Origin: an uncultured Verrucomicrobiae bacterium
GTDB lineage: Bacteria > Verrucomicrobiota > Verrucomicrobiia > Limisphaerales > JAFGQR01
NCBI GenBank assembly: GCA_963788655.1
Contig: CAWBHS010000056.1
Coordinates: forward strand, 1 to 48,260
Direction: 5' to 3'
DNA: 48,260 bases
The translations under genes were made by a program, and so were the position numbers. The notes under the pieces were generated by a model. It ran no database searches. It saw nothing but the letters and a program-made list of their open reading frames with translations, and had not been told where the DNA came from. Positions 3,632 to 27,328 of this stretch are shown piece after piece (position 1 is the stretch's first letter; each line of letters opens with the position of its first letter).

Positions 3632-3750
3632 TGCCGCGAATAGATTCGTGTGCCGTCAAAACCGCGCACGATGTCGATTTAGCGATCCGCATCCAGGACG
3701 TGTCAATGCGTTTTCGTTCCACCACGATCAGAGCAGGACTGGGCAGATGA

Positions 3751-5147: not shown

Positions 5148-5188
5148 ACGCACAGGCCGAGACTCACCAGCTTCACCGGCGGGGGCGC

Positions 5189-6391: not shown

Positions 6392-6426
6392 GGACCCAGG
6401 ACCTCATCCCCCACCTTCGCCGCTGA

Positions 6427-7629
6427 TTAATTCAGCGCCAGAATATCCAGGGCGCTGGACTGGGTGGGCTGCGGCAGATCCTTTAATCGTTGTTCAGCTT
6501 CTTTGGCCAGGCGCTCGGCCTCGGCGACATGGGGACGCGCGGTGCGCCAGCCCAATTGGGCGTATTCGTAACCGGCCCAAATTAATTGCACCTCCAGTTT
6601 GGCGACTTCGTCCGCCACCGTGTCAAAGGCCGGATGCCGCTTCAGCGACTCGGCAAGTTTCCACAAATCGGGACGGACCATCTTGATCTTTTCCGACAAT
6701 GGCAAATCCGGTCCCGGATTCAGCTCGCCATTTTCCAGCTTTTGAACAATCCGATGCGCCTGCCGTGCGGCCTCCATGACGATACCGCTCCGGTCTTTGG
6801 ATTCATTTTCGGCCCGGGCAAAATCAAGCCAGCGCTGGGCCTTGGCAAAGGCATAACTGCGGATGGGCAGGCCGTGGGCATTCAGCTCGCGCAGGCGTTC
6901 CTGCAAGGCGTCGAGATTGAGGACAGCGGTGGGGTCCGCGCCCGGCGTTGCGGCCGTGCCGGTGAAGGGCTGCGGACGGAAGGGTTTGCGGTGATACTGC
7001 ATACGCTGGCAAGCCGTATCCGCATATTGCTCCGCCTTTTCCAGCGTCGGTTTGGCCACCCGCCACCCGCGATTCTTGTAATCGTAGGCCGCCCAAACCA
7101 ATTGCACTTCCAGAAAGGCAACCGCGACTTCCCCCGCTTGGAAGTTGGGTTGCCGCTTGAGTTCTCGGGCCAACTCCCACAGGTCTGGACGGATGGACGG
7201 CACGAACGGAAACACGACGGTTTCCCGGCGGGGGTCCGACTTCTTGGACTCAAGCTGCCCAATCAGATTGGTCGCCACGGAGAAGGCTGCCGCCACCAGC
7301 GGACCGCGGTCGGTATCGGTTAATTCCGATTTGGAACAGAGCAGCCACTGTTGGGCTTTGGCCAGAAAATACCGATCGTTCGCTGGGTCCGCGACCAGCT
7401 TTTGCAGGCGGACCTGCCATCCATCGTAAGCCTTCAACAAGGCGCGGGCCTGCGATTCATGCAGCGGAGAGTAGGTTTCCGGCGCGGCCCCGGCCCCGGG
7501 CCCTTGAATCAGACTGCCCACCAGGCCCAAGATCACCGCCATCCGCCCACCAAGCCGCCAGGCCGTCCGGCTTTTCGCCGGCGCTGGGCTTAACTGGGTT
7601 GGAAGGTTTACGATCATGGGCTGCTTCAT
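6427..7629 (-). CDS. Exported hypothetical protein with an internally duplicated helical domain
   Basis: Two copies of YxxAKAQxWL...RPDLWxLAxxLKRxPxF...LEVQLxWAxYxY...GWRxA. Its ATG overlaps the upstream gene's TGA (7626-7629). Confidence 0.75.
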   Translation of the reverse strand: MKQPMIVNLPTQLSPAPAKSRTAWRLGGRMAVILGLVGSLIQGPGAGAAPETYSPLHESQARALLKAYDGWQVRLQKLVADPANDRYFLAKAQQWLLCSKSELTDTDRGPLVAAAFSVATNLIGQLESKKSDPRRETVVFPFVPSIRPDLWELARELKRQPNFQAGEVAVAFLEVQLVWAAYDYKNRGWRVAKPTLEKAEQYADTACQRMQYHRKPFRPQPFTGTAATPGADPTAVLNLDALQERLRELNAHGLPIRSYAFAKAQRWLDFARAENESKDRSGIVMEAARQAHRIVQKLENGELNPGPDLPLSEKIKMVRPDLWKLAESLKRHPAFDTVADEVAKLEVQLIWAGYEYAQLGWRTARPHVAEAERLAKEAEQRLKDLPQPTQSSALDILALN

Positions 7630-10600
7630 TCCCGCGAGTTCTTGCTGCGGCCAAACAAGGTTTCATCAAACTTGAACCGGAAGCTGATAAAGAATCCGGG
7701 ATTGGTGTAATTCTGGCCACTTAAATCGTCGTCGTGGAATCCAAAGACATTGAAGCCCGCGGCAATGCGCATGTTGTTCTTGAACGTCCAGCCCACTTCC
7801 GGGCCGAGTCCGAATTGCGCGCTGCGAAAGCCGCCCCCAAACAGCATGCTGCCATTCAGGCCAACGTCCCAACGCTTGGTCAGATCGGTACGTGGCCCGC
7901 AAGGCCACCAAGTGCGCGTCGTAGAAATCGCTGAAACCGTCGGCCGAGTCCCAGGCGAATTTGGAGGCATAATGACCGCTCAGAATCCAGTCGCGCGTTG
8001 GCTGGTAGTTGGCGTGCAAGGAGAAAATATGGACTTGCCGTTCCAAGTCGCCGCGGGGTTGCGTCCCGTCATCCTCAAACTTGTACTGGTACTTCATCAA
8101 GGCATTCCACCGATCGGTGCGCGTCTGCCGGTAGGCCAGCCCGGCCTGGAAACGCGCCTGCGTTTTGCTGCCGCCGGTGGGTCCGTTATTCTGCACGCCA
8201 TAATAGATGGTCTTGCCCAGAAAGGTCCAATCGGTACTGAGTTTGCGCGCCAATCCCAGCGTATTGAGCACGCTGTCACTCGCCGAACTGACCCGCAGTT
8301 CCAATCGCGCCGTGCCTTTCCAGTCCGGATTGCGTGTGTATTCCACCGCGGCGGCGCCGGCGGTGGCTTCATTCTGAATGTCCCCGACGATGGGGTTGAC
8401 GCGTTCGAACGTGGTGTTGAGCCGCAGTCCTTCCGCCAGGGACCAACCATTGCGCAAGCCAACCGCGGCTTCGGCTTCGCGCCCGGAAAAGGCATCCCGT
8501 CCGCGATATTCACTGAACACCGAGCCTTCCTTCATATACTCAGTGTCGAGGCCAACGACGGTGGTGTTTTGCTCCTGGAAGTTATTCAATTCAAAGGGGC
8601 CGCCCAGCGCATTGATGAATTCATGCCGGGCGTAGAGGCGGGTTTTCGGGCCCACCTGCATTTCGCCCCCGACCGCCAACAGACGCTTGTCCGTCTCGAT
8701 CACATCGTTCTCCACCTCGCCATAAACGGAGGCCTGCTTAACGAACGGTACCGGCACGGTAACCTTGGCGCGCGCGCTGTTGACTTCGTTCGGCGTCACC
8801 CCGGCCGGGGTGGCCGTGGTGGGCCCAGCCGGGGCGGCGGTTTCGGTGCTGTGCCGTCCTCCGACTTCGACGCGCACCTTGCCGGGCAAGGTCTGTTCCA
8901 CGGAGAGCGTGCCGCCTTCCCGGTGGCCGTCGTTCGCCGTGCTTTCACTGTAAATGGCCTGGCCCAACAGCCGCGTGTTGGGCGCGAGTCGATGGCTGAT
9001 TTGTGCTCCCGCTTCCCGGCGGCCCGACATAATGCCCGCCGCGTTGTTGCTGAAGGTATTGCCGGCCTCCCCGAAATAGAACCGCGCGTCCGTTTTCTCG
9101 TCCTGGTGGCGCAACTCAATCCGCCCGGCGTCGCCATCGGCCAGCGCCGTGGAACTGTGAGCCACTTCGCCCAAGACATAGGTTTTCTTGGCCAGCTTGA
9201 TGGTGGAGTTGGCGCTGTAGAGGTGGTATTCGGCCAGGGGATTTTCGTCGCGCACCACCGATCCGCCGACTTCGATATGTTCGTTGAGTTTGACTTGTCC
9301 GTCCGCGCCATACACCCAAAATTTGTCTCCGCCTTGCTCCACCTCATACGTCACGCGGATGAACACTGGATTGAGATACTCATCCACACTGGGAAGCGAC
9401 CGACGGAGGAGCAACCGGCCCGTAAACGGCTCAAATTCGTAATCCGTAAATCGGGTCAACGTTTCGCTCTTAATGACAATCGACCGCTGATTGCGATCGC
9501 GGGTGATGATCTCGACTTTTTCGCTGTTGATGATGCCGTCCTTCGCGCTGAACTGATACGGCCCGGAAGTGCCATTGCCGCGCATCTCATCGATTACCTG
9601 GCGGGTGCTGTCCTCACTGGCCCATACGTTCAGGCGCACGTGCTCGTTTTCCAGATGCACCCGCCCACCCGTCAGGCTGCGACTGTAGTTCCCCAGGCTG
9701 CTGGCTTCCGCTTGCGAGGTGGTGACGAAGTCGCCATAAAGTACGTAACACCGCTTCCGGTCCACGCGAACATACAAGCGCCCCGTGCTTTGGGCGTCGA
9801 ATCCTTTGACCGACGAATCACCATACACCGGGTAAAACTCATCCGGTTGGATGTCGCGGAAGAGCCGCTCCTTGGTGTCTTTGTCCGAGTCAAAGCCGAC
9901 CGTCAGCAGGTATTTGCCAAGCACCTTGCCCTTCACAAACAGGGCGGCCCGTCCGCCATATCGATCGGAACCCGAACCGTCGTTCAGGGCAAAGGCCTGG
10001 AGTTCTTCGGCGAAACCATCCTGCGAGCGCGGGGGAAAGGCATCGTTGCCATTGAGGTCGCTGAAATTCACCGTGCCTTCGAGAACCCCCACCGCCAGCA
10101 ACGGCCGCAGTTCGGGGAGAAAATGGAGCACCGCCTCGGCCCCCATCGCACCGCTGCTAACCTGGATGTGTGATTCCCCCGGCTCCAGGGGCGGTGTCAG
10201 GTAAAACTCGGCGTGGCCGCCCTCGATGAATACCTGGGTGGCGGGCGTGCGGGTATCAAAATCTTCGACCTGCCATTCACCCTGACTGGCGCTCAACGTC
10301 AGCGGCAAGCGCGCCGTCACTCGCACACCGGCGCCATCGGTCACTTCCACCACGACTTTGGCCGGGGTCTTGCCGTCTGCCACCGCGCCCTCTTTGGGGA
10401 GAAAGATCCGGATCGATCCCGGTTTGTCGGGAGCGATCAGGTTCACTCCCTCGCGGCCCCGTTCGTTGCCGAACGCATCGATCTGGACCACCTCCACTTC
10501 ATTGTTGCCCGGCTGCAATTCCACCCCGACATATTCCCAAACCTCCAGTCGCTTTTCGGCCAGCGTCGCCCGTTTGCCCAAACGGCTGGCTGACACCTCT

Positions 10601-12486
10601 TGACCGTTGACGCGGAGGACCAACTTGCTCCCTTGCACTCCCTGCACTCGAATGGTGGATTGGGCCATGGGCAGGATGTCGCCGTCCTTGAAATCAACGA
10701 AACCCAAGGTGTTGGTGGCGACTGTTTCCAGTGCAGGCTCCAAGGGCAATTGCGGGCCAAAGACCGGGTTCAGCGGCATGCCGTTGGTGGCCGAGGATGC
10801 GGTATTCGTGCTCGCGGTGACGCGCGGTGTACGACCGGCAGCACCCGGAACCAGGCCAGTGACCAAGCTCGGTCCCGCATTCACCGGATCGCTGATTACC
10901 CCGCTCGCCGGCAGTGAACGCGGATCGTTTCGGGGCACCAGGGCTCCATCCGGCGTCAAACGTCCCTTGATCATCGCGTCAATCTCGGACGCCCGACCCT
11001 CGGCCCGGAGCCGGCGGGCTTTGACTTCCTCAATGACTTCAGGCACCGGATAGCCAATCGTAAAATTGGCTTTGTGGATTTCACCGCGGTTGATATCCAC
11101 AAACCGGGTGCCACCGCTGCCCGCATGCCGCGTGGAGGGGGCGAGTAGCACCGCGCCGGTCGGCAACGTCGTTTCGTCAAGTTTAAGCACATGGGTCTTG
11201 GGCGAGACGCCGTAGAAACTGTATTTGCCTTCGCTGTCGGTAATGACATAGGTGCCATCCTCCATGTAAAGGCGAATGCCGGGAACGCCCAACTCCAGGA
11301 GATCTTGAATCCGGTTTTGATTGGCATCGATGAAGACCTTCCCCAGGACCACGCCCATGTCAGTAAACACGCCGCCTTGTTTTACTTCCAGTTTGACGGT
11401 CGCCCGATTGCTCTGCAACACCCGCGGCTGCGTGCAGGTGGACCAGGCGGTGAATACGCCATTGCCTTTGGTCGTTCCCGGCCCGGCGCGCACCACCAGC
11501 GTCAACGTCACCACGCCATCATTCGGGAGGGCGCCCACCGGAAACACCAGTTGCGGGCCGGCGCCGCCTTCCGGATTCGCGATGGTCACCCCTTCTCGGC
11601 GGGCGGTTCCTTGTTGATACGCAAAACCGGCGGACAGGTTGTTCACGGCCACCACGTCCGCCAGATCGATACCCGTGGCATTGCGGATGCGGATCGTCAG
11701 TTCAACCATGTCGCCAATCTCGACGCTTTGCCGCGACGCGGTGATCTGGGTGAACAACGAGCCCAGTTCGGCCAGCAGGCTGACGCGGTTTTCACTCATC
11801 GCGGCCAAGCCACTCGCCGGCACCGTCGCGGTCAATTGGATCGTCGCCGCCTGTCCGCCCAGTAACGGGGAAGATGGTAGTTCGCCCACGATCACCAAGT
11901 CCAGCGGAGTACCGGGATTGACCGTGAGCGAACCGCCGTTGGCAATCTCGATTTCGCCGGTATCGACCACTCCGTTGCGATTGGGATCCCGGAACAGTCG
12001 GAGATTTGTCAGGTCGTAATCATTGTCGGGACCGTTTGCCGCCTGGAGGGTAACCATGGCTGGCCCCGTTCCCGAATAATCCAGGCGATGAGGCAACGAA
12101 ACCGTTGAGCCCACGGTAGCGGTCAACGACCGTCCGGGGGAAAGGTCCAATTGACCGGCGGGAGGGATGTCCCCCTGGATGATCACGCGCACCGGTTCGG
12201 ACTGCATTCGGACCAGGTTGGTGCCTCCCGGTGCGCCATTGGCCTCCGTGGTGAATTCGACCACCGCCAGGTTGATTATCTCCAAGCCGGTGGCCGGTGG
12301 CGCCGCCCGCGCCGGACAAACGACGGCATAAAGAATGAGTCCAAGGAGGAAGCACTGGCTCCCGACCGCGCGCACGAGCGGAACCAGTGAGAAAGGCAAT
12401 GAAAACGAGAAGCGTCGGCTTGCAGCAAAACAGAAAGCTTGAGCTCCGATCGGCATCTTACGGGCTGACCTTTCGGGTGCCTCCAT
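7626..12486 (-). CDS. Large outer-membrane protein: N-terminal Ig/DUF11-like domains, SdrD-B-like domain, C-terminal beta-barrel (1-nt frameshift at about 7887)
   Basis: Signal peptide, a DUF11-like repeat, GKVFIDANQNRIQD..ELGVPGIRLYMEDG, and a long run of amphipathic beta strands. The C-terminus FFISFRFKFDE continues in the 7626..7970 frame. Confidence 0.85.
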
Positions 12487-12735
12487 GAAACCGCGTCATA
12501 GACGGAAACCTGGCTTCGAAAGATACAGCTCGTTTTTCGAAGTCAGATTCAGGGGCAATGTTGGAATCACCCCGCAACCGCTTGCGGGGGATTCGCCAAT
12601 GCGCGCGCTTCATGGACAAGGTGAATCCGACGTTTAGCCGAGCGGGAGGCAGCGCGACTGAACCACCGGTCGCCAACTGGCCACGTGCCCGCAAGCCAAT
12701 GGCTCTGCGGAGCTTCCACGCTCTTCCAGGTTCAA

Positions 12736-12751
12736 AGCAAAGGATGTGCCC
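12736..12751 (-). promoter_or_regulatory. Putative sigma54 (-24/-12) promoter for the beta-barrel operon
   Basis: The minus strand reads GGGCACATCCTTTGCT (GG-N10-GC, close to TGGCAC-N5-TTGCW), about 250 bp upstream of ATG 12486. Confidence 0.6.
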
Positions 12752-12968
12752 GGATATGCACATTCCGCGCGTAAAGGTTCTTCCAGACGAAGTTTTTCCT
12801 GGCCTTTGCCTGCCGTGAGGAACCCAGGTGGAGGTATCCAAGGTGTGGATGGTCCGCCGGGCCAGTCAATTGAACGACCCGTATCCATCCGGCCAAGTGG
12901 CCCACGAGGCGCCCGCCGGTCCTGCCCTAGCGAGATCTTGTCGGGCCGGGGGGGGAAGCGACTTAAAT

Positions 12969-15007
12969 CTATGCCGCACAAGCAGTCGGAATGGCCTGGC
13001 TCGAGGGCAATTCCAACGTGAAGGTGGCCCCATGTCCCGGTCCGTCACTATGAACAGATAATTTGCCCCCCATTTCCTTGGAGGCGTTGGCCCCGCTATG
13101 CAGCCCAAAACCATGCCCATGCGGTTTGGTGGTAAATCCATGTTGGAAGACTCGAGTCAGATTCTCCTCCGGAATGCCCACTCCGTTGTCGATGACTTGC
13201 ATCTTCACTGTTTCTTTGCCCTGCCGGGTAATTCTCAGAATCAACCGTGGCTCCTGGGGCTGACCGTCTTGCAAGGCATGTTTGGCGTTGCGAATCAGGT
13301 TGATCAAGATCTGCATGGCTTTGTGCCGATCCACGTCCACCGGCGGCACGTCGTCAAATTCCCGGACCACCGTCACGTTGACCCCTTCCAGCCCGGCGGC
13401 ATTCATCCGCAAGGCATCTTCCATCAACATGGCCGGTGCCACCGATTCAATCACCCCGGACACTTTGGCGTAGGCCTGTTGCATGGAAACGATTTCCTTG
13501 ATGTGGTCCACGTTCTTGCGGAGGGCATCGAGTTCCTCGAACTGGACGGCGTGCTCATTGGCGACATGCTTGGCGAGCTTCGCCACAAAATCCGGCAGTT
13601 GTTTGCCGCGCGGATCTTCGGTGAGGAAGGTGCCGAGGTCGGCGGCATGCTCGGTCAGCAATTCCGCCAGGCGACTGATGCTGGAAACCTTGGAGTTCCG
13701 CAACCGGTCGGCCACCACCGTCGCGGAGACGTTTACGCTGTTGAGCACGTTTCCCACATTGTGTAAAACGCCCGTGGCCACTTCGGCCATGCCCGCCTGA
13801 CGCGACGTTCGCGCAATTGTTTGTTCAGTCCCTCCAATTCCTGGGCCACCCGCTTCCGCTCGGTAATGTCCCGGATAATCGCGCCGTAAAACTGCTGCTG
13901 CTCAACTTGCCAGGCATACAGCGAAACCTCCACGGGCAGTTCCCCATGCTTCTGATTCAAGGCATGCATTTCGATGGTTTCCCCGCCCTGGCTGGAATCG
14001 GTTTGACCTTCGACCCGCTCAATCCCCGCGCGGTAAATCGCGTGATATCGCTCGGGAAACAATTCCACCATGGGTTCGCCGAGAATGTCTCCTTCGTCAT
14101 AGCCAAAGATCAGTACGGCGCCTTTGTTCCAGGAGGTAATCCGCCCTTGCTGGTCAATGGAGATGATCGCGTCGTTGGCCGATTCAGTGAGGGATTGAAA
14201 GCGCTGATCCGCCACCCGGCGTGCCGCTTCCGTGCGCGCCCGCTGTTCAATTTCGCACTGAAGATCCTGGTTCATCTTGTTCAGGGAAGCGGAGTCCGAC
14301 TCGATTTGCCCCAGCATTTGGTTGAATGCCTCGGTCAGCATGCCCACTTCGTCTTTGCCCAACTGCGCGGCGCGCACCGCGTAATTCCGGTCGTGCGCCA
14401 CGACCTGGGCCACTCCCGCCAATTTCAGAATGGGAACGGAAATGAAGCGTTGCAATCGATTGGAAAGGAGGAAACTGACCAGGATCGACCCGAGCAGCAC
14501 CAACCCGGTAATCCCACCGTACAGGCGAAGCAGGTCATGGTGGGCCTGGCGAATATCCGCATCCAGATACAGGGTGCCCAACCGGTCGCCTTCCAGCACG
14601 ACCGGTTGCGCCAGCAGCAACCGGTTTCCTTCCACGCTCAAACCGTCTTGCAAGGCGCGCGACGCAAATACCTCCCGGCGGTTGGCGGGTCCGCGGTGGG
14701 CGAATTCACTGCCGTCCTTCAAATGCAAACTGGCATAGGTGATCTGGGGTTTGGCTTGCAATGAGGCCAGCACGTCCGCCGCCGCCTGACGATCCCGGAA
14801 GGTCAAAGCCCCCAGGCTGTTCGCGGCAATGATTTTCGCCGTGGTTTGCAAATCCTGCACCAGTCCGCGACGAAAATAGTAGTCTTGAAATACGAACAGA
14901 GCGGCTCCGGCGACCAGCAGGACAACCGAGCAGGTCATCACCACGATCAAGTTCAACTTGCGCTGGATGCGCAAATTCAAGACGAAGCGTTTGAGAAGGG
15001 CGATCAC
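12969..15007 (-). CDS. Membrane sensor histidine kinase (CHASE8-like, HAMP, PAS, HisKA, HATPase); frameshift at about 13809
   Basis: Two TM segments, HAMP (DEVGMLTEAFNQML), PAS (DAIISID..GRITSWNKGA..IFGY), H-box GMAEVATGVLHNVGN, and N/G boxes. Confidence 0.88.
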
Positions 15008-15397
15008 GACTTAGTTCACCGCAGCCATTTTCTGGGCGGTCCATAAAGTGAAACGCGCTTGGCGATGCCACCCTATGGCCAAGGCCACTCGTGAGGAACC
15101 TTTGGGAGTATTCCCATTCTTGAAAGGGTATCGCGTGATGGACCACTGCTGACTCATAAAACTCGAATCCAACTTGGTTCCGATTGCTCTGCGGGCGGCA
15201 ACATTTTCCCCTGCGGCTCCGCGCCGATCATTCCCAGTCGGTTCAGAGCAGGAAAAAGGCCCATCATGAAGTTGCTGATCCAAACATTTCCCGCGCGTTG
15301 GGTCGGAGGGCGCGACCATCGGGCGCGCGGCGGGCAACCAACTTGGACGGGCACGGATTGCTCGCACGATTTGCCCGGCGCGCCAATCCTACGTCCG

Positions 15398-17605
15398 TCA
15401 GGCGGCCCACTGACGATCCGGCGGCGCAGGTTCCCGTGCGTCCGCGGCCACCACCTCAATTTGTCCCAACAATTCACGCACCGTGTGCAGCAGTCGTTCA
15501 GGTTTATACGGTTTCTGCAAATAGGCACAGCCCTGGTTCGCGGCAAAGTCCCGGCCCGCCAGTTCCGAATTATAACCGCTGGTGTAGATGAGCTTCACTC
15601 CCGGTTTGCTCTGCTGAAGTTGCTTGCCCAGTTGCAGGCCGCTGATGCCATTTGGCATGACCACATCGGTCACCACGATATCAAAATCCTGGCCGTGCTC
15701 TTTCCAGAGGTTCAAGGCCTGCACGGCATCGCTGGCTTCGACGACCCGATAACCATGCTGCTGCAGCACTTCCCGCTGCATTTCCCGGAGCAACTCTTCA
15801 TCTTCCACCAACAGCACGCGTTCCTGCCCGGTGACATTGCGCAGCAAACGCGTCGGTTCATCCTCCAAAATGAGCGGCTTTTCGGTCTTGGGCAGATACA
15901 CGGAAAAGGTGGAACCCTTGCCCACTTCGCTGCTGACCTCAATCCATCCCGCATGCTGCTTCACAATCCCGAAGGCGGTGGATAATCCGAGACCCGTGCC
16001 TTTGCCCAAGTCTTTGGTCGTATAAAAAGGTTCGAAAATGTGCTCCAGGTTGGCGGGGGCAATACCGCAGCCTTCATCCGCAACACTCAGGCAAACAAAC
16101 TGGCCCGGCCGCGACTGCGGATTCTGGGCGGCGTAGGCCTCATCGATGTCCACCACCCGCGTCCGCACGACCAGTTGGCCGCCTTGCGGCATGGCATCGC
16201 GAGCGTTGACCACCAGGTTCATGATCACTTGTTCCAGGTTGCACTCGTCCGCTTCAATCGCGGGCAAGGTTTCGGCGCATTCGCAATGCAGCGTCACCTG
16301 TTCGCCGATCACCCGGCAGAACAGCGCATGGAGCTGGCGGACGATTTGATTCACGCTCAGCACCCGGGATTGCACCACCTGCTTGGAACTGAACGCCAGC
16401 AATTGGCGGGTTAAATCCGCCGCGCGCTCGGAGGCTCGGTTGACGTGCTTGAGCGAGCTTCGCAAGGGAGCCGCCAAGTCAGCCTGCGCCAGTTGCAAAT
16501 TCACATGGCCCTGGATGATGGTCAGAATGTTGTTAAAGTCATGGGCAATCCCGGCGGCCAATTGTCCCACCGCCTCCATCTTCTGCGATTCCTGGAGGCG
16601 CTTCTCCAGTTGTTCGCGTTCGGAAACGTCTTCCGCGATCACGAGCATATTGGGTTCGCCGCCGAGGTTCAGCAGTTCGGCCGAGAGAAACACACTGCGA
16701 GCCTGGCCGGATTTGCTTTTCAACTGGCACGGCGCATTACGAATGGATCCCAGTTGCTTGAGCCGGCTGGAGATTTTCGCCCCGGGCTTCGGATCCTGCC
16801 AGAGGCCCAGTTCCTCATCCGTGCGTCCAACGATCTCTTCCGGGGGGTATCCCAGCGTTTTGACAAAAGCCTCATTCACATGCAGGTAGCGTTCTTCGCT
16901 GACCGTTTGAATGGCCATCGGAATGGGCGTGGCCCGAAAGGCTTTCGAAAACCGTTCCTGCGATAGCCTCAATTCGGCGTCCACCCGCTCGCGTTCGGCG
17001 ATTTCCTCCTGCAAGCGCGCGTTGGTCGCCTGCAGTTCCTGGGTGCGTTCATTGACCTTCCGGTCTAGTTCCTGCAAGCGGTCTTTGGCCTGCTGGGTGA
17101 GGTGCCATTTGCTCGTCAGGGCATGGGCCAGTTGCAGCACCTCCACGTTGTCAAAGGGCTTCTTCAGGATCACCAGGCTGTCCGTGTTGCCCAGGTTGCC
17201 CACGTTTTGGATGATGTCGTTCCAGGAGTAGTCCGAGTAGGCCGTGCAGATGACAACCTGAAGTTCGGGATACACTTGCCAGATCCGGGAGATGGTTTCG
17301 ATGCCGTCCCAGCCGGGCGGCATGCGCACGTCCACAAAGGCCATCGCGTACGACCGGCCTTCCTGCTGGGCCTGCTCCACCCGGGCCAAGCCTTCCTGGC
17401 CTTGGAACGCCGAATCGACATCGAACTGGACCGTGCTCTCGGTTCCCGCGTCCGGCTTCGCGCCAAACAGCAGCGCCTCTGCTTCGCTCAACTCGTCGCT
17501 GGCCTGCTGGGCGGGCAGTAGTATTTTGCGAAAATCCTCGTGAATGGACGGATTGTCGTCAATCACCAGGATACGGCTGGAGTTGGATGAAAGGCGGTCA
17601 CTCAT
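15398..17605 (-). CDS. Cytoplasmic hybrid kinase REC-PAS-HisKA-HATPase-REC
   Basis: RILVIDDN...FVDVRMPPGWDG, QKMEAVGQLAAGIAHDFNN, NLVVNARDAM, GKGTGLGL, and a C-terminal VLLVEDE...TDVVMP. Confidence 0.93.
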   Translation of the reverse strand: MSDRLSSNSSRILVIDDNPSIHEDFRKILLPAQQASDELSEAEALLFGAKPDAGTESTVQFDVDSAFQGQEGLARVEQAQQEGRSYAMAFVDVRMPPGWDGIETISRIWQVYPELQVVICTAYSDYSWNDIIQNVGNLGNTDSLVILKKPFDNVEVLQLAHALTSKWHLTQQAKDRLQELDRKVNERTQELQATNARLQEEIAERERVDAELRLSQERFSKAFRATPIPMAIQTVSEERYLHVNEAFVKTLGYPPEEIVGRTDEELGLWQDPKPGAKISSRLKQLGSIRNAPCQLKSKSGQARSVFLSAELLNLGGEPNMLVIAEDVSEREQLEKRLQESQKMEAVGQLAAGIAHDFNNILTIIQGHVNLQLAQADLAAPLRSSLKHVNRASERAADLTRQLLAFSSKQVVQSRVLSVNQIVRQLHALFCRVIGEQVTLHCECAETLPAIEADECNLEQVIMNLVVNARDAMPQGGQLVVRTRVVDIDEAYAAQNPQSRPGQFVCLSVADEGCGIAPANLEHIFEPFYTTKDLGKGTGLGLSTAFGIVKQHAGWIEVSSEVGKGSTFSVYLPKTEKPLILEDEPTRLLRNVTGQERVLLVEDEELLREMQREVLQQHGYRVVEASDAVQALNLWKEHGQDFDIVVTDVVMPNGISGLQLGKQLQQSKPGVKLIYTSGYNSELAGRDFAANQGCAYLQKPYKPERLLHTVRELLGQIEVVAADAREPAPPDRQWAA

Positions 17606-18094
17606 GGGCGGGGCAAGGCGCAACCTGTTGGTTGGAATCCTGAGCGCAATCCCAACGCGAGGCGTGGATTTGTTATCGGCGGTATCGCCGGTGGTTCACC
17701 TGCCGGCGCAAGTTCATCCGCCCGCCGGTTGACCGTGCGGGGCTCTCGACTGCTAATCTGGCTGTTCGGTTGTTCCATTCCGTTCTGTTCGCAGTACACC
17801 TTGCATAGGTTATCGGCGGTTGCCATGGCCGCTAAACCTGAATCCCCCAATCCAAAGGCCAAAAACACGCCGCAGATCTGGCAAGCACCCCGTCTGGGCC
17901 GGGATGGCCCGCCAAGCCATCACCGCCCGTAAAGCGAGCGACACGATTCGCCACCCCCGGCGACTCCGGGCACTTGCGCCGCGCTGTACGTGCCGCGGTC
18001 GGCCCAGCGGACTGGCCCTGCCACAATTACGCATCTCGGTCTTCGGCCTGTGGATTTCACCCCAAAGCTCTGGTATTCCCACCTTTCCTGCCGC

Positions 18095-18251: not shown

Positions 18252-18791
18252 ATGAAGGCAATCCAGTGCGTGGAATTCAACCGAATCAATCTTCCCCCGT
18301 GGCGCGCCGCCGCCCTCGGCCTCCTGCTGCTTGGCAGCTTGAGTTGGGTGGCTGCGGCGGCGAACAACGACCTGGCCATCTCCCTCCAGGCGCGCAAGGT
18401 GATTGCCCAGACCAACGGTCGCGAACAACTGCAACCCGCCGAACGCGCCTTCCCTGGTGAAGTTATCCAGTACGACGCCCGGTATGCCAATCAAAGCGGC
18501 CGGCCGCTGCGCCAGATCCAACCCACGCTGCCAATCCCGGCCGGTATGACTTACCTAAAGGACTCCGCCAAACCCGCCCCGGTCAAAGCCAGCCTGGATG
18601 GCAAGACCTTTGAAGCCATTCCGCTGCACCGGCAGGTGCAATTGCCCGACGGCAAAGTGGAACTGCACGAAGTGCCCGCCACCGAATATCGCGCGTTGCG
18701 GTGGTATATCAGCGAACTGGCGCCCGGCAGCCAGACCAACCTGGTGGCCCGCACGCGGCTGATTCCTTTAACCACGGCTTCCCGCCGGTGA
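18252..18791 (+). CDS. Small exported DUF11-like single-domain protein (candidate assembly chaperone)
   Basis: Signal peptide, then PGEVIQY...N...TLPIPAGMTY...LRWYISELAPG. GGAG RBS. Confidence 0.8.
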   Translation: MKAIQCVEFNRINLPPWRAAALGLLLLGSLSWVAAAANNDLAISLQARKVIAQTNGREQLQPAERAFPGEVIQYDARYANQSGRPLRQIQPTLPIPAGMTYLKDSAKPAPVKASLDGKTFEAIPLHRQVQLPDGKVELHEVPATEYRALRWYISELAPGSQTNLVARTRLIPLTTASRR

Positions 18792-18837: not shown

Positions 18838-21516
18838 ATGCAACTTCGATCCCCCCTCATGATAACGCCAACGCCTGTTCCCCGAACCACATTACAGCGC
18901 CCGGGTGCCGTGCTGCGTCGCACCGGCTGGCTATGGTCCCTGACGCTTAGTGCCCTGTTCTTGCCGTCCGGCCCGAGGCCGGCCTTGGCCGATGCTCCAC
19001 CAGCGGGCACACAGATCGGCAATCAGGCCAGCGCCAGCTACACCGACTCCAGCAACACCGAACGCACCGCCACGTCGAACGTCGCCATCACCATCGTCCA
19101 GCAAGTGGCCAGCTTCACGCTCACCACGGATGGTCAGGCCAAATACGCGGCGGCGGGGAGTCAGGTTCTGTATCCGCACACCTTGATCAACACGGGCAAT
19201 GGTTCGGATACGTTCGATCTGAGTGCGGCCAACAGCTCGGGCAGCGACGATTTCGACCTGAATTCCCTGGCGCTCTACGCCGACGCCAATGGGGACGGTT
19301 TGCCGGATAACACCACCGCCGTGACCAGCACCGGTCCCTTGCCACCGGGCGGCGTGTTCAAATTCGTCGTGCTCGGCATCGTGCCGGGCAGCGAAACCGC
19401 CGGGCGGGCGGCGGCCATCATCGTCACCGCCAGCGGCACGACCACCGCCACGCCCGCCGCGGCGCAGAATAACACGGACACCACGACCGTCACCGCCGAC
19501 GCTGTGGTCAACGTGAGCGCGGCCATGGATTCCAGTGCCGGCGCGCCCGGCAGCGGCCCCTACACCATCACGCTGACGTACAACAACACCGGCAACAATT
19601 CGGCCACCAATTTGACCCTGCTGGATGTCCTCCCCGCCGGCTTCACTTACGTCACCAACAGCGCCCGTTGGAGCACCCTCGGCAGCACCCCCCTGACCGA
19701 TGCCACCGGCGACAATCAGGGTGCCGCGCCAGACACGATCGATTACGATTTCGGTGACACAGTTGCGGGCCGCATGAAGGCAATCATTTCTCGGGTTCAG
19801 CCGGGCCAGTCCGGCACGCTGACGTTCCAGGTCACCGTGGGGTCAGCCCAGCCCGCCGGTGTGATCAACAACACGCCCACTTACAGCTACGATCCCGGCA
19901 CGGGCGCCACCGTCGGACCGCTGAACGCCAACACGCTTCAATTCACCGTCACCCAAAGCAACGGCGTGGACCTCACTGGCCAGACGATTGCCAGCGCCAC
20001 CCAGGGCAGCACGGTTTCATTTACGAATGTCCTGCAAAACACCGGCAACGGCACCGACACGTTTGACCTCACGGTCAGCAACACTTCCTTCCCCGCCGGA
20101 ACCACGTTTACGCTTTACCAGAGCGACAGCAACACCCCGCTGGTGGACAGCTCCGGCAACGGCATCCCGGATTCCGGACCGATGGTCACCAGTCAAACCA
20201 AGAACATCATCCTCAAGGCCGTGCTACCCAACGGCGCCTCGGGTGCGGGCGTGAATTACACGGTGCGCTTAACGGCCACCTCCATCACCAGTTCGGGCAC
20301 CACGACGAACGTCAACGACGTGCTGACCAGCGTCACCGGCAACACCGTGGACTTGAGCAACGGCCCCAGCGGCGGTGCCGGCGCCGGCCCGGAAGTTTCG
20401 CCCGTGGTCATCAATACCTCCAATCCCAACACGACCACTCGCTTCACTCTTTACGCCACCAACACCAGCGGCGTGGCGGACAGCTACAACCTCACCACCA
20501 GCACCAACGCCAGTTTTGCTTCGCTCGATTTGCCCAGCGGCTGGAGCGTGGTGTTCCGCGACGCCAACGAAGCCATCATCACTTCCTCGGGCGTGCTGGC
20601 CGCCGGCACGAACAAACTGATCTATGCCGACGTAACCGTCGCGCCCGGCACGGCGCCGGGCACCAACAGTATTTATTTCCGCGTCGCGTCGTCCACCTCC
20701 GGCGCCTCCGACCGGTTGCACGACGCCGTGGCCGTCAACACCGTCCGCAATCTTTCCCTGGCGCCCAACAACACCGGCCAGGTGTTCCCCAACGGATTCG
20801 TCGTGTTCAGCCACCTCCTTATCAACAACGGGAATGTTCTCGAAGGCGACGGCACCCTCAGCAGCGTCAATTTAAGTCTCGCGGACTCCCTGTCGGGCTG
20901 GAGTTCGGTGCTCTATTACGATCTCAACAGCAACGGTGTGGTGGACGGCGGGGACACGGCCGTCACCAATCTGGCGTTTGTCAGCGCCGGCAGCGCTGGC
21001 GTCTCCCCGGGCGAATCGATTCGTCTGCTGGTTAAAGTGTATGCCCCGCCGGGCGCCGCCCAGGGCACCATCAACGCCACGACGATTACCGCCACCACGG
21101 CGAACGGCACCCACACCGTCGCCGCGCCTGCCGCTGCCGTCGCCACGGATAATTCGACCGTCATTGCCGGCGACCTCCAGTTGCTCAAAGAACAGGCGCT
21201 GGACGCCGACCTGAACGGCACGCCGGACACGGCCTACACCACCACGGACATCACCACCGGCGCGACGCCGGGCAAAATGATCCGCTACCGGATCACGGTC
21301 ACTAATCGCGGCACTGCCCCGGCCACGGCGGTGAAAGTGTACGACACCACGCCGGCTTACACGATCTATACGATAACCGGTCCCGCCTCGACCACGGTGG
21401 GTTCCGTATCCAGTGCGCCTGCCGACGGAGCCACCGGCGCGTTGGAATTTGACATTGGCACCCTCAATCCTGGCGCTTCGGCCGTCATCACCTTTGGCGT
21501 TGCCATTGCCCAGTAA
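18838..21516 (+). CDS. Secreted DUF11/Ig-repeat protein (candidate fibre shaft subunit)
   Basis: Signal peptide, T/S/N/G-rich Ig repeats (NTGNGSDTFDL, NTGNGTDTFDL), N-terminal AGTQIGNQASASY, and a C-terminal DUF11 ending TFGVAIAQ*. Confidence 0.88.
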   Translation: MQLRSPLMITPTPVPRTTLQRPGAVLRRTGWLWSLTLSALFLPSGPRPALADAPPAGTQIGNQASASYTDSSNTERTATSNVAITIVQQVASFTLTTDGQAKYAAAGSQVLYPHTLINTGNGSDTFDLSAANSSGSDDFDLNSLALYADANGDGLPDNTTAVTSTGPLPPGGVFKFVVLGIVPGSETAGRAAAIIVTASGTTTATPAAAQNNTDTTTVTADAVVNVSAAMDSSAGAPGSGPYTITLTYNNTGNNSATNLTLLDVLPAGFTYVTNSARWSTLGSTPLTDATGDNQGAAPDTIDYDFGDTVAGRMKAIISRVQPGQSGTLTFQVTVGSAQPAGVINNTPTYSYDPGTGATVGPLNANTLQFTVTQSNGVDLTGQTIASATQGSTVSFTNVLQNTGNGTDTFDLTVSNTSFPAGTTFTLYQSDSNTPLVDSSGNGIPDSGPMVTSQTKNIILKAVLPNGASGAGVNYTVRLTATSITSSGTTTNVNDVLTSVTGNTVDLSNGPSGGAGAGPEVSPVVINTSNPNTTTRFTLYATNTSGVADSYNLTTSTNASFASLDLPSGWSVVFRDANEAIITSSGVLAAGTNKLIYADVTVAPGTAPGTNSIYFRVASSTSGASDRLHDAVAVNTVRNLSLAPNNTGQVFPNGFVVFSHLLINNGNVLEGDGTLSSVNLSLADSLSGWSSVLYYDLNSNGVVDGGDTAVTNLAFVSAGSAGVSPGESIRLLVKVYAPPGAAQGTINATTITATTANGTHTVAAPAAAVATDNSTVIAGDLQLLKEQALDADLNGTPDTAYTTTDITTGATPGKMIRYRITVTNRGTAPATAVKVYDTTPAYTIYTITGPASTTVGSVSSAPADGATGALEFDIGTLNPGASAVITFGVAIAQ

Positions 21517-21826
21517 ATCACCGAGCCAACGGGCCGGGCGGTGCGCTCAGCGGATCGTCTTGGGTGCCATTGCCCTGTCTTAGAAAACCATGCCGCATGG
21601 ATGCATCAGTGGGGATCAGCGGGACGCCCGACGAAGCGTCCGTGCTGAACCAGTTAAGTCGCTTCCCCTCAACGTGGCAAAGACGGATTCCACTCCGTCC
21701 CTGACTTTTCCTGAACGCGTTCACTCATCCAGAACCGAGATCAGGGAGATCCGCACGCGCCCAAATTTACCCCGCGAACGTTCCCGGGAGGCGGTAAGCG
21801 CTGCGGAAGAAGTGGGACGCAGAGGA

Positions 21827-24800
21827 ATGCGTCCTTACCAGCGTGCGAGTTGCCACCTCACCTCCACTTCCCACTGCCCCTCTGGCCTCACGGTTACTCT
21901 CTTGTGCCTGGTTCTGCTGCTTTTGCCCCCAACCGCGCGCGCCCTCGACGACGGCCTCACCGATTACGTCACCATCCCCGCCGGTTCCTACATCATTGAC
22001 ATGGGCGTCACGCCGCAGACCGTGGCCAACGGGCTCAAGCCCTACGGATTGGTCTATGACTTGATCGTCAATCGGCAGGTCACGGTGGATTGGGTTATCA
22101 ATCCGGCCAAGACCAAGGATGGCGCCGACTTCACCTACAACGCCAAAGCCTATCGCGGCGCGCCCTTTGTGATCCACGCCGAGCAAGTCAACGCGGCGGT
22201 GGTCGCGACCATCAACAACTGGAAAGCTCAAGGCGTGGTCGTGGACGGTCCGACTACGGTGGCCATCTCCAACGTGCCGGTTTACGACACGCTCACCTCG
22301 CTGGCCAGGTTGGCACTCGACACCGACAACGGCTCGATTACGGCCAAATACCTGGTCAATGCCGGCATCCCGGGCAGTGCCTACACCCTCAAACTGCCCA
22401 CGGAATTGTCCGCGTGCGATGACATCTTCGCCTTGCCGCACGCGGATCCCACCTGGGCCGATCACCACAATCTCATCAACTTCGTGCAGGCGGGCGGTTA
22501 CGTATGGTCGGCTTGCCACGCGGTTAGCGTGCTGGAAAACCTCGATGATCCTGGTGATCCGGACAGCGATCCCGACATGAATTTCCTGAGCGTCAGCGGC
22601 CTGGTGCCGTATGGTTCACACAACGACGGCAGTCCGCCCTACACCTATCCCGCCATCGGTGACATTGACCCGGCCATGCAGTTCATGAGCATCCTGGACG
22701 CCGCAACGGAGAACGGATCGGAACAGGTGTTCCTGCCCAACGCGGCTGGCTGGCGGCCCGCCACGCGGATTTACGTTTACGATCCGGACCAGAAGGACAT
22801 CCCGCTCAAGTCGCCCGGGGAAGCCGTGATCGTGGCGGTGGGTCGGGCTTTTGGCATTAGCCAGAACGGGCGCGTCATGTATGAAGCCGGGCATGACCAT
22901 TCCAAATCCACCGCGCCGGAAAACGTCGCGGCCCAACGCGCGTTCCTGAATTTCTATTTGCTCTCCGGCATTGAGCGACGGGCGGAGCCTTACCCGACCG
23001 TTCCCGCCACCATGACCGAGGGCCTGATGACGAACCTCACCGGCACCGTCAACGCCGGCAGCGGTTCCTACACTTACCAGTGGTCCAGCAGCATTGGTGG
23101 CACGTTTGGCGACGCTAATTCGCTCAGCACCACTTACATTTCTCCCAGCATCGTCACCAACACGCCCGCCCTCCTGCGGTTGGTCGTCACGGACAGTTGC
23201 GGGCGACGGTCATTCCGCACGGCCTCGGTTACTGTGGAGGCCATCCCGAATGCGGACCTGTCCGTCACCGCCACCGAATCGCAGAACCCGGTGGCCGCCG
23301 ATGCCTCGTTCAACTACGTCCTCTCCGTGGTGAACCGCGGTCCTGACCCCGCCACGAATGTCGTCGTGAGCGACACCCTGCCCACTGGCGTCACCTTTAC
23401 CGGCGCCGCGGGCACCGGTTGGTCGTGCAGCCACAGCAACGGCGTCGTCACCTGCTCGCGCTCGATCTTGTCCACGAACGTCGGCAGCCCCTCCAGCATC
23501 ACGATTACACTCACGTCGCCCCCCAATCCCGCCACCCTAACCAATCACGTCACGGTCAGCTCACTTCTGGTTGATCCCAATCCGTCCGACAACACCAATG
23601 CCATCACCACGTTTGTCATCAACGGGATTGACCTCGGGCTCACGATGACGGCGGTGGCCAGCGGGTATAGCGGCATCCTCCTGCCGTACACCTTCACCGT
23701 GACCAATCACACACCCGTCGGCGTGACCAATGTCCTCATCGAAGGCACCCTCCCGACCACCCTCGATTACGACAGTGGCTCCGGCCCGAATTGGTCGAGT
23801 TACTACGACACCCCTACGCGCCGCTTCACGCTCATCCTGCCAACGTTGGCCGCCAGTGGCACTTCCACGGTGACGCTCAACCTCATCCCCGGCACCAATG
23901 CCGCCGGCTTGACCGTCACCAACACCGGCACCGTCCGGTCCAGCATCCCCGATCCGGACCCTAGTAACAACACGGCGAGCCAAACGACTGCCATCCAGGC
24001 CGCCGCCGACCTGGGGATACAGAAATCCTCCGAGGTGGACACGACTCCCGACCCCGATGCCTTTACGTTTACGATCATCCTGGAGAACCTGGGCGCTTCC
24101 GTGGCCAACAGCATCACGGTCACGGACATTCTCAGCTATTCCGTCTCACCTTTCCCGCTCTACTTCAGTAACGCAGTCGCCACTGTCGGCAGCTACACGC
24201 CAATTGGCATCCAGGGCAGCAACGGCGGCAGTTGGACCATCAGCAGCCTGGCGGTGGGCGACACCGCCACGCTCACCCTGTACTACGGCGGCAACACCAC
24301 CGCTACGTTCACCAACACCGCCACGATTCTTTCGGCCGCGGAATACGATCCTGACCCCGCCAACAACAGTGATACCACCGTCGCGGACAAAGATTACAAA
24401 CTGATTGACCTCGGTGTTCTCATGACGGATTCGCCCGATCCGGTCGCGGGCGGGAGCAACATCACCTACACCATCACCGCCACCAACACGGAGCCGAAGA
24501 ACGACTGGTCCGGCGGCGGCAAGATCCTGACGGTGACCGACCCGCTCCCGCCCAACACGACCTTCGTCAGTGCCAGCGGCACTGACTGGACCTGTTCCTA
24601 CGACGGCCCCAGCCGCACGGTGACCTGTACTTACACCAAGGACATCAACCACAAGCAGGCCAAATCCTTCACCCTCGTCATCACGGCGCCGTCCACGCCC
24701 GGGTACGATTACCAACACCGCCGCCCTGAGCTACGTCCGCCCCAACACCGGCGATCCGGACGCGCCCAACGACGCGCACTCCGAGACCACAACCATCGCC

Positions 24801-27328
24801 GCCAATGTGGACCTGCGGTTGACCAAGAGCGTGGACAATCCCACGCCGCTGTTGGACAGCAACGTCGTCTTCACGGTCAGCGTCGAGAATGTCGGCACGA
24901 ATACCGCCACCGCGGCCAACGTGCGCGTCACTGAGGCCATCCCGGGCGGCCTCTCCTATGTGGCCGACACTCCCTCGCAAGGAGTTTATGATCCGAGCGT
25001 TGGCTTTTGGTATGTAGGGAAATCAGTCCGGGGGCCACCGCCACGCTGCTGCTGACCGCCCGGGCCAACCAGGCCGCGCAAATCACCAACTTCGTGGTCA
25101 TCAGCGGATTGACCCAGACCGACACCAACGCGGCCAATGACAACGCCGATTCTTCCGTCAACGTCCAGTCCGCCGATCTCGCGCTGGGCCTGTCGGCGGA
25201 TACGTTGGTGCCCAACGTGCGGTCCAACGTCACCTTCACGATCACGCTCACCAACCTCGGCCCCAGCGCGGTCAGCAACATCACCGTCAGCGACGTGCTG
25301 CCGGAAAACGTGGAATACGTCTCCCACACTGCCGGCCAGGGCAGCTACGCGAGCGGTACCGGCCTTTGGAGCGTGGGCAACCTCACCAGCAATGCCACCG
25401 CCACTCTTACCCTTACGGCCGCCATGCTCGACTGGGGTTGGCACACCAACACCGCGCAGGTCACCGGGGCCACAGTGGGAGATCCGAACGCTGCCAACAG
25501 CACCGCCAGTCTCGGCGTCGAGGGCCAGTTGGTGGACCTGGATCCGGGCAAGTCGGTGGATAACGAACGTCCCCTCGGCCTGGGTAGCAACCTGGTGTTC
25601 ACCATTGTCGTGACCAATCGCGGTCCCAGCACTGCCACCGGGGTGGAACTTACCGACCTGTTGCCCACCGGCCTGGGCTATAAAACCCATACCCCGTCGC
25701 AAGGCACCTACGACGATACGACCGGTAAATGGACCGTGGGCACACTGGCCAGCAACGCCGTCGCTTCGCTCTCGCTCACCACCACGAACTCCGCGCCGGG
25801 CAAATTTACCAACACGCTTTCCATCACTGCCCTATCCCAGTCCATCACCAACACCGCCGACGACACCCCCAGCGTCATCATCTACAGTGGCGGTGAAGCT
25901 GACTTGTACCTCACCAAGACGGTGGATGACGACAATCCGGAATCCGGCCAAAAGGTCACCTTCACCATCAAGTTGGACAACGAAGGCCCCGATCCCGCCA
26001 CGGGCGTGACGATCCGGGATCTACTGCCGGCGGGATTGACCTACTCGGATCATTACGCCCCCAGCCCTACAACCTACAATCCCACCACGGGCGCCTGGAC
26101 AGTAAGTTCCATCGCCAACGGGCAAAGCCTCTCACTCATCCTCAAGGCCTTGGTCACCGGCAGCGGTCAACTCGAGAACACCGCCGAGATCCTTGCCTCG
26201 AATGCCGCCGATCCCGACCCCATCGGCAACACGGCCAGCGTCCACCTCAGTGTCATCACCATAAACTCCGTTTCCGGCCGGGTCTTTCTCGACACCGGCA
26301 GTAGTGGCGGTACGGCCAATGACGGTGTCATGAACGGTGGCGAAACCGGCCTGGCGGGCGTGACCGTGAAGCTCACTGACAATGCCGGCGCGACGATTTA
26401 TGCCACGGCTACCACCGGCGGCGGCGGCAATTATGTCCTGAACATTCCGTCCACGCTCACGAATTCGGTCACCTTGAAAGTGGTGGAGGTCACCCCGCCC
26501 AGTCACGTTTCCACCGGTGCCCAATTGGGAAATACCGGGGGCAGTTACCAACGCGACTCCGACACAGTTACCTTCACCTTCGTGCCCGGCACGACTTATA
26601 CGGGCGTCAATTTTGGCGACGTGCCTGCCAATGCCTTCGCGCCCGACGGCCAGCAAGCGGCATTGCCGGGCAGTTTCGTGGTGTTCGCGCATACCTACAC
26701 TGCCGGCAGCGCGGGCACGGTGACGTTCACCACCACCAGCCAGTCGTCGCCCAGCCTGCCGGGGTGGACCCAGGTGCTCTTCCGCGATGCCAATGGCAAT
26801 AGCCAACTGGATACCGGGGAGGCAGTGATCAGCGCCCCGATCGCTGTGACCGCCGGCCAAAAAGTAAACCTCCTCGTCAAGGAGTTCATCCCGGTGAACG
26901 CTCCGCTCAATGCGCAGGATCTGATTACTGTGACCGCCACCTTGGCATACACCGATGCCAACCCGGCGTTGGACAATGTGCTGACCCGCACCGACCTGGC
27001 GACCGCCGGCACTCCGACCACCGCCGGGTTGACGCTGGTCAAAGCGGTGGACAAGGATTCCGCGCTGCCGGGCGAAACCATCACTTACACGATCACCTAT
27101 TTGAACAATGGCGTCGATGTGCTCCGCAACGTGATCATCTACGATCAAACCCCGGCGTTCACGGTATTCGTCAGCGCCGGCACCGGCGCGTTTCCCAACA
27201 ACCTCACCGCGGTGGACCTGACTGCGCCCGCCGCGGATGCCTCCGGCGCCCTGAAATGGGTCTTCACCGGCACGCTGGCCCCTAGCGGCACCGGCACCGT
27301 GAGCTACAGTGTGAAGGTGGCGCAATGA
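21827..27328 (+). CDS. Large secreted DUF11-repeat adhesin (about 1830 aa; two compensating frameshifts at about 24702 and 25018)
   Basis: Signal peptide (LLLLPPTARA), a ~380-aa N-terminal head, eight complete DUF11 repeats (xDLxxxK/M...D.LP...N.A...DP...N), an SdrD-B-like domain and a terminal DUF11. ORFs 21590.., 24807.. and 25007.. join. Confidence 0.85.

Follow-up and report, generated by a model that had tools for sequence, protein, structure and literature searches.

A putative three-part surface fibre in an uncultured Verrucomicrobiae bacterium, with joints that may be the halves of one DUF11/CLIPPER isopeptide domain

The stretch of DNA analysed here, hereafter the window, comprises the 48,260 nucleotides of contig CAWBHS010000056.1 (positions 1 to 48,260, forward strand; GenBank assembly GCA_963788655.1) from an uncultured Verrucomicrobiae bacterium. 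It contains three genes, termed shaft, tip and anchor, whose products carry immunoglobulin (Ig)-like domains of the DUF11/CLIPPER family and may together form a surface fibre. The shaft and tip end in a DUF11 domain that stops short of its last hairpin, and the shaft and anchor begin with an asparagine-bearing hairpin that is a candidate for the missing part. The features on which this proposal is built are the following.

18838 to 21516, plus strand: shaft subunit, 892 amino acids (aa), with a signal peptide, a donor hairpin, approximately five Ig-like domains and a C-terminal open DUF11/CLIPPER domain
18991 to 19107, plus strand: candidate donor hairpin of the shaft (residues 52-90), with N62 (19021-19023) and N81 (19078-19080)
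21169 to 21513, plus strand: candidate acceptor of the shaft, its open DUF11 domain (residues 778-892), with K784 (21187-21189), Y817 and D836 (21343-21345)
21590 to 27328, plus strand: tip protein, one gene with two single-base frameshifts (near 24700 and 25018) and a likely start at 21827
27020 to 27325, plus strand: candidate acceptor domain of the tip, with K679 (27041-27043) and D713 (27143-27145, in the motif IYDQTP), ending at the stop codon
7626 to 12486, minus strand: anchor, approximately 1620 aa, with one frameshift near 7887 (open reading frame (ORF) 7666-12486, 1606 aa)
12175 to 12306, minus strand: candidate donor hairpin of the anchor (residues 61-104), with N72 (12271-12273)

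In translation, the shaft begins after its signal peptide with DAPPAGTQIGN(62)QASASYTD...TSN(81)VAITIVQQ, carries D836 within the motif VYDTTP, and ends in ...ITFGVAIAQ. Membership of the CLIPPER/DUF11 family (PF01345) lies above the Pfam gathering cut-off of 24.6 bits for the shaft (44.8 bits), the anchor (27.8 bits) and both pieces into which the tip gene is broken (200.4 and 325.4 bits). We identified 120 shaft orthologues of roughly equal length with 52-72% identity and Verrucomicrobia-type names, 119 of which have their C-terminus at the same position. N62, N81, K784, Y817 and D836 are invariant in all 116 of those that could be aligned. The orthologue alignment contains exactly two conserved Lys/Asp cores (228/263 and 784/836) and exactly two hairpins with an invariant first-strand Asn (N345 and N62), and because N345 directly follows core 228/263, N62 is left over for the terminal core 784/836. 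When the rest of the shaft was searched with a profile of the N-terminal hairpin, the best match was the closing hairpin of the internal DUF11 domain, where N62 fell on N345 (E-value (E) 0.018).

The tip consists of a variable N-terminal domain, eight DUF11 repeats, an SdrD_B-like domain and the open terminal DUF11 domain, whose C-terminal end reads ...SVKVAQ. ORFs 21590-24934 and 25007-27328 were joined into one gene because a complete DUF11 repeat lies between them in the third frame, bounded by single-base shifts; both shifts fall at short homopolymer runs. The N-terminal domain (21827-23245, plus strand, approximately 435 aa) matched no Pfam family and had no relative in the 80 related loci described below, and tips elsewhere carry other head or stalk domains, such as DUF7933 and SpaA_4, which suggests that the tip heads are exchangeable adhesin heads. 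The anchor starts with a signal peptide and the hairpin, continues with DUF11, SdrD_B-like and Big_1-like domains, and ends in approximately 830 aa of all-beta structure.

Relatives of this gene set are widely distributed. A search for the anchor family in species-representative genomes yielded 600 candidate stretches, at least 574 of which were confirmed, and 80 loci were kept, their ORFs being classified with hidden Markov models (HMMs) built from the window's family. These loci represent at least eight phyla and were found in Verrucomicrobiota, in Beta-, Gamma- and Deltaproteobacteria (several Acinetobacter species among them), and in Nitrospira, Acidobacteria, Gemmatimonadota and Balneolaceae; cultured carriers include Pseudoduganella lurida, Aquincola agrisoli and Alkanindiges illinoisensis. 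Their genes fall into complementary types: shafts have both a hairpin and an open domain, anchors a hairpin only, and tips an open domain only, no donor hairpin being found in the tip by HMM search. The usual order is a small DUF11-like protein, the shaft, the anchor (hairpin, Ig domains and approximately 830 aa of beta structure), a protein of approximately 400 aa and the tip. Among the 48 loci of at least 20 kilobases (kb), the shaft is intact in 43, split into two ORFs in four and part of a fused giant ORF in one (L067); the tip lies inside the locus in 32, and all three parts were found in 28. The anchor chain has no Lys/Asp core lacking an Asn that could serve its own hairpin, and the tip chain has no Asn hairpin for its own open core; such unpartnered hairpins and cores are what a model of joining in trans predicts.

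We next consider how the terminal domains compare with complete members of the family. A profile of 110 terminal domains aligned to a profile of 81 complete DUF11 repeats with 98.8% probability (hhalign, E 1.3e-16), Lys on Lys and Asp on Asp, and the alignment spans only template columns 2-86 of 118, after which the stop codon follows. The terminal domain of the shaft lacks the last ~32 columns of a complete repeat, and the absent part is the hairpin that in complete repeats bears the invariant Asn of the motif 'tNtA'. A Lys, Asp and Asn triad within one chain was not found in the terminal domains, from which the Asn hairpin is absent. In the related loci, all 54 terminal domains of shafts and all 46 of the tip type carry both Lys and Asp. 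The alignment of these 100 domains, which stem from 81 loci, has 150 columns, and just three of them are invariant: the Lys, the Asp and a Tyr equivalent to Y817. This pattern is real and far from chance.

The Asn on the hairpin side is conserved to a similar degree in shafts, where it is present in 54 of 54. It was found in 36 of the 38 anchors that the donor HMM matched, the other two having Ser and Ala. The HMM missed 20 of the 58 anchors whose N-terminus lies in the locus, the window's own among them, and inspection by eye showed an I-x-N-x-A motif after the signal peptide in 17 of these 20. An initial annotation of the window had described the terminal domains as truncated, which the end of the profile alignment at column 86 bears out, and had located the codons of K784 (21187), K679 (27041), N62 (19021) and N72 (12271-12273, minus strand), all of which are where it put them; the Lys, Asp and Asn that it singled out are conserved in homologues as counted above.

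A search of the PDB with a single repeat returned no match, and the solved CLIPPER structure 9IFR was reached only with profiles. The Lys, Asp and Asn of the CLIPPER domain 9IFR align on the Lys, the Asp and the 'tNtA' Asn of the repeats (E 0.038), and the anchor profile aligned to 9IFR with E 9.8e-9 and with the triad positions in register. According to the sections of the CLIPPER survey available to us, the published triad is K715/D748/N806 and is bond-forming in the solved domain (PMC12617251). By homology to this triad, N62 is the residue that would pair with the terminal Lys.

Structure prediction is consistent with binding of the hairpin to the open domain. A complex of the shaft acceptor (residues 766-892) with the hairpin (residues 52-92), modelled with alignments for both partners, gave an interaction prediction score from aligned errors (ipSAE) of 0.79 (runs 0.81, 0.78 and 0.79), and the best of three controls gave 0.00. 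In calibration, 116 of the 157 solved complexes attained the mark set for this score, as did 2 of the 215 mismatched pairs, and near relatives of a true partner can clear it as well. At least 94% of contacts are shared between runs, and the predicted local distance difference test (pLDDT) of the partner is at least 83. In the modelled complex the first strand of the hairpin (60-68) runs antiparallel to the Asp strand (830-836) and its second strand lies along the Lys strand, with contacts of K784 to A64, S80 and A83, and of D836 to A64 and S65.

Taken as a whole, these data are best explained, with a probability of roughly 0.6, by a natural tag/catcher junction in which complementation by a hairpin passed between subunits is followed by an autocatalytic Lys-Asn lock. 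The gene products would form a surface fibre of three parts, a tip, a shaft present in one or many copies and an outer-membrane anchor, with joints made from the halves of a single CLIPPER/DUF11 isopeptide domain. The tip and shaft would each offer, at the C-terminus, a domain with the first-strand Lys and the D-x-x-P Asp and lacking the last hairpin, and the shaft and anchor would each offer, right after the signal peptide, a hairpin bearing the Asn. All parts would first be exported by Sec. The N-terminal hairpin would then slot between the Lys and Asp strands of the open domain of the preceding subunit, a donor-hairpin complementation with the polarity of chaperone-usher pili. Within the hydrophobic core completed in this way, the Lys amine would attack the Asn carboxamide with assistance from the Asp, releasing ammonia and leaving an intermolecular isopeptide bond. 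Read from N- to C-terminus, the product would run from distal tip to barrel, as one very long adhesin encoded by three genes and restitched post-translationally. The tag/catcher idea had been put forward in the initial annotation, and it gains from the homology to 9IFR, the conservation of Lys, Asp and Asn, the complementary gene set and the complex model; what did not survive is its contention that the triad is retained specifically at subunit junctions.

That contention is not supported by the related loci, where 63 of 81 complete internal repeats keep Lys, Asp and Asn, and this is one of several observations that weigh against the tag/catcher junction. The five internal first strands without Lys on which the contention was built do exist, and four of the eight internal repeats of the window's tip keep their Lys. 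As Asn and Asp are conserved in internal repeats without Lys as well, the Lys is the only diagnostic residue. Its distribution favours the junction: 72 of 81 complete internal repeats have it, versus 100 of 100 terminal domains (Fisher P = 0.0006). In the window itself, the same contrast is seen: the internal DUF11 domain of the shaft has Ala at position 228 (codon 19519-19521), where 111 of 116 relatives have Lys, and the terminal residues are kept; similarly, the internal DUF11 domain of the anchor has Ile at position 248 (11743-11745, minus strand), where 50 of 54 relatives have Lys, and the junction residue is kept. The Lys at position 248 was lost together with the Asp in the four-member subclade to which the window belongs. 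Against the junction, on the hairpin side, the donor HMM matched 0 of 81 complete repeats, and 0 of 82 reversed control sequences, below E 0.01, and the donor profile showed no significant similarity to the complete-repeat profile (hhalign, 3.3% probability). Since these other profile comparisons were null, the likeness of the hairpin to a DUF11 closing hairpin rests on the alignment with E 0.018 and on four weak matches of the donor HMM at internal positions. The hairpin of the window's anchor is divergent (donor HMM, E 0.03), its relatives carrying the motif, and the window's tip and anchor genes carry frameshifts.

Some of the same observations would be accommodated if complementation between subunits were non-covalent, as in chaperone-usher pili or TasA, with Lys, Asp and Asn kept for packing and hydrogen bonding. 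The conservation of Asn and Asp in repeats devoid of Lys fits such an arrangement, and so do the anchors with another residue at the Asn position, which include the two of 38 found by HMM and several in the databases with Ser, Ala or Gly; the joint of these anchors to the shaft would be non-covalent, bond-free if the hairpin binds at all, or would use other chemistry. Moreover, in the complex model N62 is in the interface list, and the pair K784-N62 is absent from the 25 listed contact pairs. We nevertheless regard a purely non-covalent joint as unlikely, as the fold can do without the Lys, which 9 of 81 internal repeats and a small paralogue have lost but none of 100 terminal domains has, and as bond formation by the homologous triad is described for the solved CLIPPER domain (PMC12617251).

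A more radical alternative is that nothing is split: the hairpin would cap the first domain or form an integral part of it, the C-terminal domain would be a shorter Ig domain that is stable by itself or is closed by the preceding hairpin, and the genes would encode separate adhesins. An orphan hairpin is expected to be disordered, and AlphaFold2 instead modelled hairpin and first domain as ordered in the absence of the acceptor (pLDDT 93.9 overall and 89-94 in the hairpin; predicted template modelling score (TM-score) 0.81). The ordered hairpin may be part of the first domain, or it may be stable and rest against the domain that follows, as any two domains in tandem do; Foldseek with this model returned generic Ig domains only (query TM-score no higher than 0.54). 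The lack of a significant match between the donor profile and canonical closing hairpins points the same way, as does the fact that cousins of a true partner can pass the complex score. Covariation was calculated as mutual information with average product correction from 169 shaft sequences, whose effective number was 95; between hairpin and acceptor it did not exceed that between hairpin and other domains (95th percentile 0.071 for the acceptor versus 0.071, 0.067 and 0.069 for three other domains) and gives no signal either way. In the hairpin that precedes the terminal core of the shaft, 88 of 116 orthologues have Asp at position 746 and 26 have Asn, which could favour closure from that side, but this hairpin belongs to a domain without Lys, and the preceding hairpin of the tip, read from the sequence, has neither Asn nor Asp at the aligned position. 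Both the solved CLIPPER domain and the internal domain of the shaft (K228, D263, N345) are closed by the hairpin that follows the core. If nothing were split, the invariant Lys and Asp of 100 of 100 terminal domains would be partnerless and the complementary donor-only and acceptor-only genes would be a coincidence, and we therefore judge this alternative improbable. Finally, the shaft chain carries both halves, and its N-terminal hairpin could fill its own C-terminal domain to give a ring with an intramolecular bond; models of archaeal Taf subunits have led to the proposal of a closed monomer there (PMC11821415). Such self-closure appears very unlikely, given that approximately five Ig domains separate the two ends of the shaft and that anchor hairpins and tip acceptors without a partner in the same chain would be left unexplained.

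Within the tag/catcher reading, the anchor would tie the fibre to the cell, and its C-terminal ~830 aa (7626-10134, minus strand, in the window) matched no Pfam family. The corresponding part of the anchor from one related locus (L001:13430-15925) was modelled by AlphaFold2 with long antiparallel strands over residues 257-821, approximately 28 in number (pLDDT 74.6). A Foldseek search with this barrel model found only generic large barrels (SlpA, TonB-dependent receptors, LptD, MtrB and FimD) at query TM-scores no higher than 0.3. The predicted barrel may in principle be wide enough for folded Ig domains, and may thus be both anchor and export pore. In the gemmatimonadotal locus L067 (positions 2-13834), a single ORF of more than 4600 aa combines the barrel with at least 27 DUF11-like repeats, an arrangement that looks like the fibre in unsplit, single-chain form. 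The anchors with Ser, Gly or Ala at the position of the hairpin Asn are P0127, P0140, P0160, P0162, P0173, P0195, P0199, P0211 and P0228, together with those of L079 and L049.

Two further genes accompany the three fibre genes.

18252 to 18791, plus strand: small DUF11-like secreted protein, 179 aa, just upstream of the shaft gene
6427 to 7629, minus strand: helical accessory protein, 400 aa, with two repeats, just downstream of the anchor gene

The small protein resembles the open acceptor domain but has neither the Lys nor the Asp, and it is kept upstream of the shaft gene in other loci across phyla. Among the six copies matched by the acceptor HMM none has the Asp, and the Lys position is variable; the copy in locus L025 matches Pfam DUF11 positions 11-87 of 114, and Atlas clusters for this protein are DUF11-like with a score of 0.98. 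One might guess that it serves as a reversible holder of the hairpin, a chaperone or a cap. In at least 25 loci the anchor gene is followed by a homologue of the helical protein (E 8e-38 to 1e-12). The copies in L042 and L025 add a C-terminal OmpA (peptidoglycan-binding) domain, and the window's copy has no Pfam match. The anchor in L060 ends in a sequence that likewise appears typical of OmpA C-terminal domains.

Anchor and shaft genes are adjacent on one strand in most other loci, and the operon is therefore rearranged in the window, where they are separated by two sensor kinase genes (12969-17623, minus strand), of which one encodes a hybrid kinase that includes a receiver domain. At least four single-base frameshifts occur within approximately 20 kb, at 24700, 25018, 7887 and 13733-13790, the last of which splits a CHASE8-HAMP-PAS histidine kinase (12969-15007, minus strand) and was seen in translation only. 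The shift near 7887 is one extra base, after which the orthologous C-terminus continues in another frame, and the shifted C-terminal residues recur in a public copy of the anchor protein (P0125). Judged by this pattern, sequencing or assembly error appears more likely than decay. Pfam and NCBIfam searches assigned the window to no named system and returned only TIGR01451 and a sub-threshold choice-of-anchor T match.

Covalent pili are a textbook feature of Gram-positive bacteria that requires sortases, and Gram-negative fibres are taught as non-covalent. Spontaneous ligation is familiar from pairs of the SpyTag/SpyCatcher type, DogTag/DogCatcher among them, in which a peptide with one reactive residue completes a domain holding the other two; these pairs are man-made, by cutting CnaB-type or pilin domains of Gram-positive bacteria, whereas the cut considered here appears natural and lies in a CnaA-like CLIPPER domain. 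With regard to sortase-assembled pili, no sortase family was found in the Pfam scans, and the shaft and tip have no LPXTG motif or membrane tail. The type V pili of Bacteroidota are built from lipoprotein precursors with a C-terminal donor strand freed by a protease; here the donor is N-terminal, and the shaft has no Cys where its signal peptide is predicted to be cleaved. Classical autotransporters share the order of an N-terminal passenger and a C-terminal barrel, but there was no Pfam autotransporter match, and the beta region of approximately 830 aa with approximately 28 long strands differs from a 12-strand barrel.

In chaperone-usher pili such as type 1 and P pili, as summarised in the sections of PMC11821415 at hand, a C-terminally incomplete Ig fold is filled out by the next subunit's N-terminal extension, the tip having no donor and the terminating subunit a donor only. 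The split anatomy and the complex model fit this scheme, and the fibre polarity would be the same; the AlphaFold2 model of hairpin and first domain, with its ordered hairpin, did not reveal an orphan donor. The differences are a two-strand hairpin as donor, a predicted covalent lock, and a last subunit fused to a barrel of approximately 830 aa; in addition, Pfam scans of 28 ORFs of the window and 21 ORFs of L042, L074 and L025 revealed no PapD-like chaperone and no PF00577 usher.

For a triad whose residues are shared out over donor strand and acceptor, the nearest precedent is Clostridium perfringens BsaA, a member of the TasA family, which assembles by 'exchange and lock' through N35-E56-K74 and in which triad mutants abolish oligomers (bioRxiv 10.1101/2024.11.04.621531, in the portions available). 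As described there, BsaA likewise has its triad split between chains, with Asn on the N-terminal donor strand and Lys and the acid on the acceptor, and forms the bond autocatalytically without a sortase. The same distribution is found here, with N62 or N72 on the donor and K784/D836 or K679/D713 on the acceptor. BsaA differs, on the same partial account, in its TasA-like fold, its Gram-positive host, its homopolymer of one small subunit, its single-strand donor, its Glu acid, and in having no outer-membrane anchor or separate tip gene. The TasA/camelysin-type fold and a SipW-type signal peptidase were not found in our scans, which returned only Pfam families of the DUF11 type or related Ig families and no signal peptidase gene. 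The surface thread of Sulfolobus acidocaldarius also combines donor-strand complementation with a proposed sortase-free intermolecular isopeptide bond involving Asn; to judge from the available parts of PMC9715654, that bond joins the N-terminal alpha-amine (Asp24) to Asn57 two subunits along, with no Lys, and the thread is archaeal, glycosylated and devoid of a Pfam domain.

The CLIPPER domains themselves belong to the same family, with the Lys, Asp and Asn aligned, and the internal repeats of the tip and shaft carry an ordinary triad within one chain; the difference is that the terminal domains here have no Asn hairpin of their own and that this hairpin would be found at the N-terminus of other proteins. 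The portions of the CLIPPER survey that were available (PMC12617251) do not mention split or truncated domains or strand complementation, and use 'intermolecular' for other systems. Similarly, the word 'isopeptide' does not occur in the available portions of the Tafi paper (PMC11821415), whose DUF11-like matches include DUF1102, and a 2026 review of bacterial surfaces, in the part at hand, ascribes covalent isopeptide crosslinking of pili to the sortases of monoderm bacteria. A full-text literature search that covered journals other than subscription titles found no split DUF11 domains or covalent donor-strand fibres in diderms, and the fibre system is apparently widespread in Gram-negatives and undescribed so far.

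Somewhat more tentatively than for the junction itself, we suggest that these loci represent a widespread, unrecognised class of diderm fibre, composed of a tip, one or many shafts and an anchor, with hairpin joints of split CLIPPER domains, autocatalytic isopeptide locks and an anchor barrel that would double as the export pore, and assembled without sortase, chaperone-usher machinery or adenosine triphosphate. If this is true, many diderm bacteria would build covalently stitched fibres without an enzyme, by an assembly route that would join the known chaperone-usher, type IV, type V, curli and sortase pathways. It would also explain why huge 'DUF11 repeat proteins' occur as conserved gene sets, and would provide natural orthogonal and mutually specific tag/catcher pairs for protein engineering. 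The whole fibre would then be one covalent thread ending in the outer membrane.

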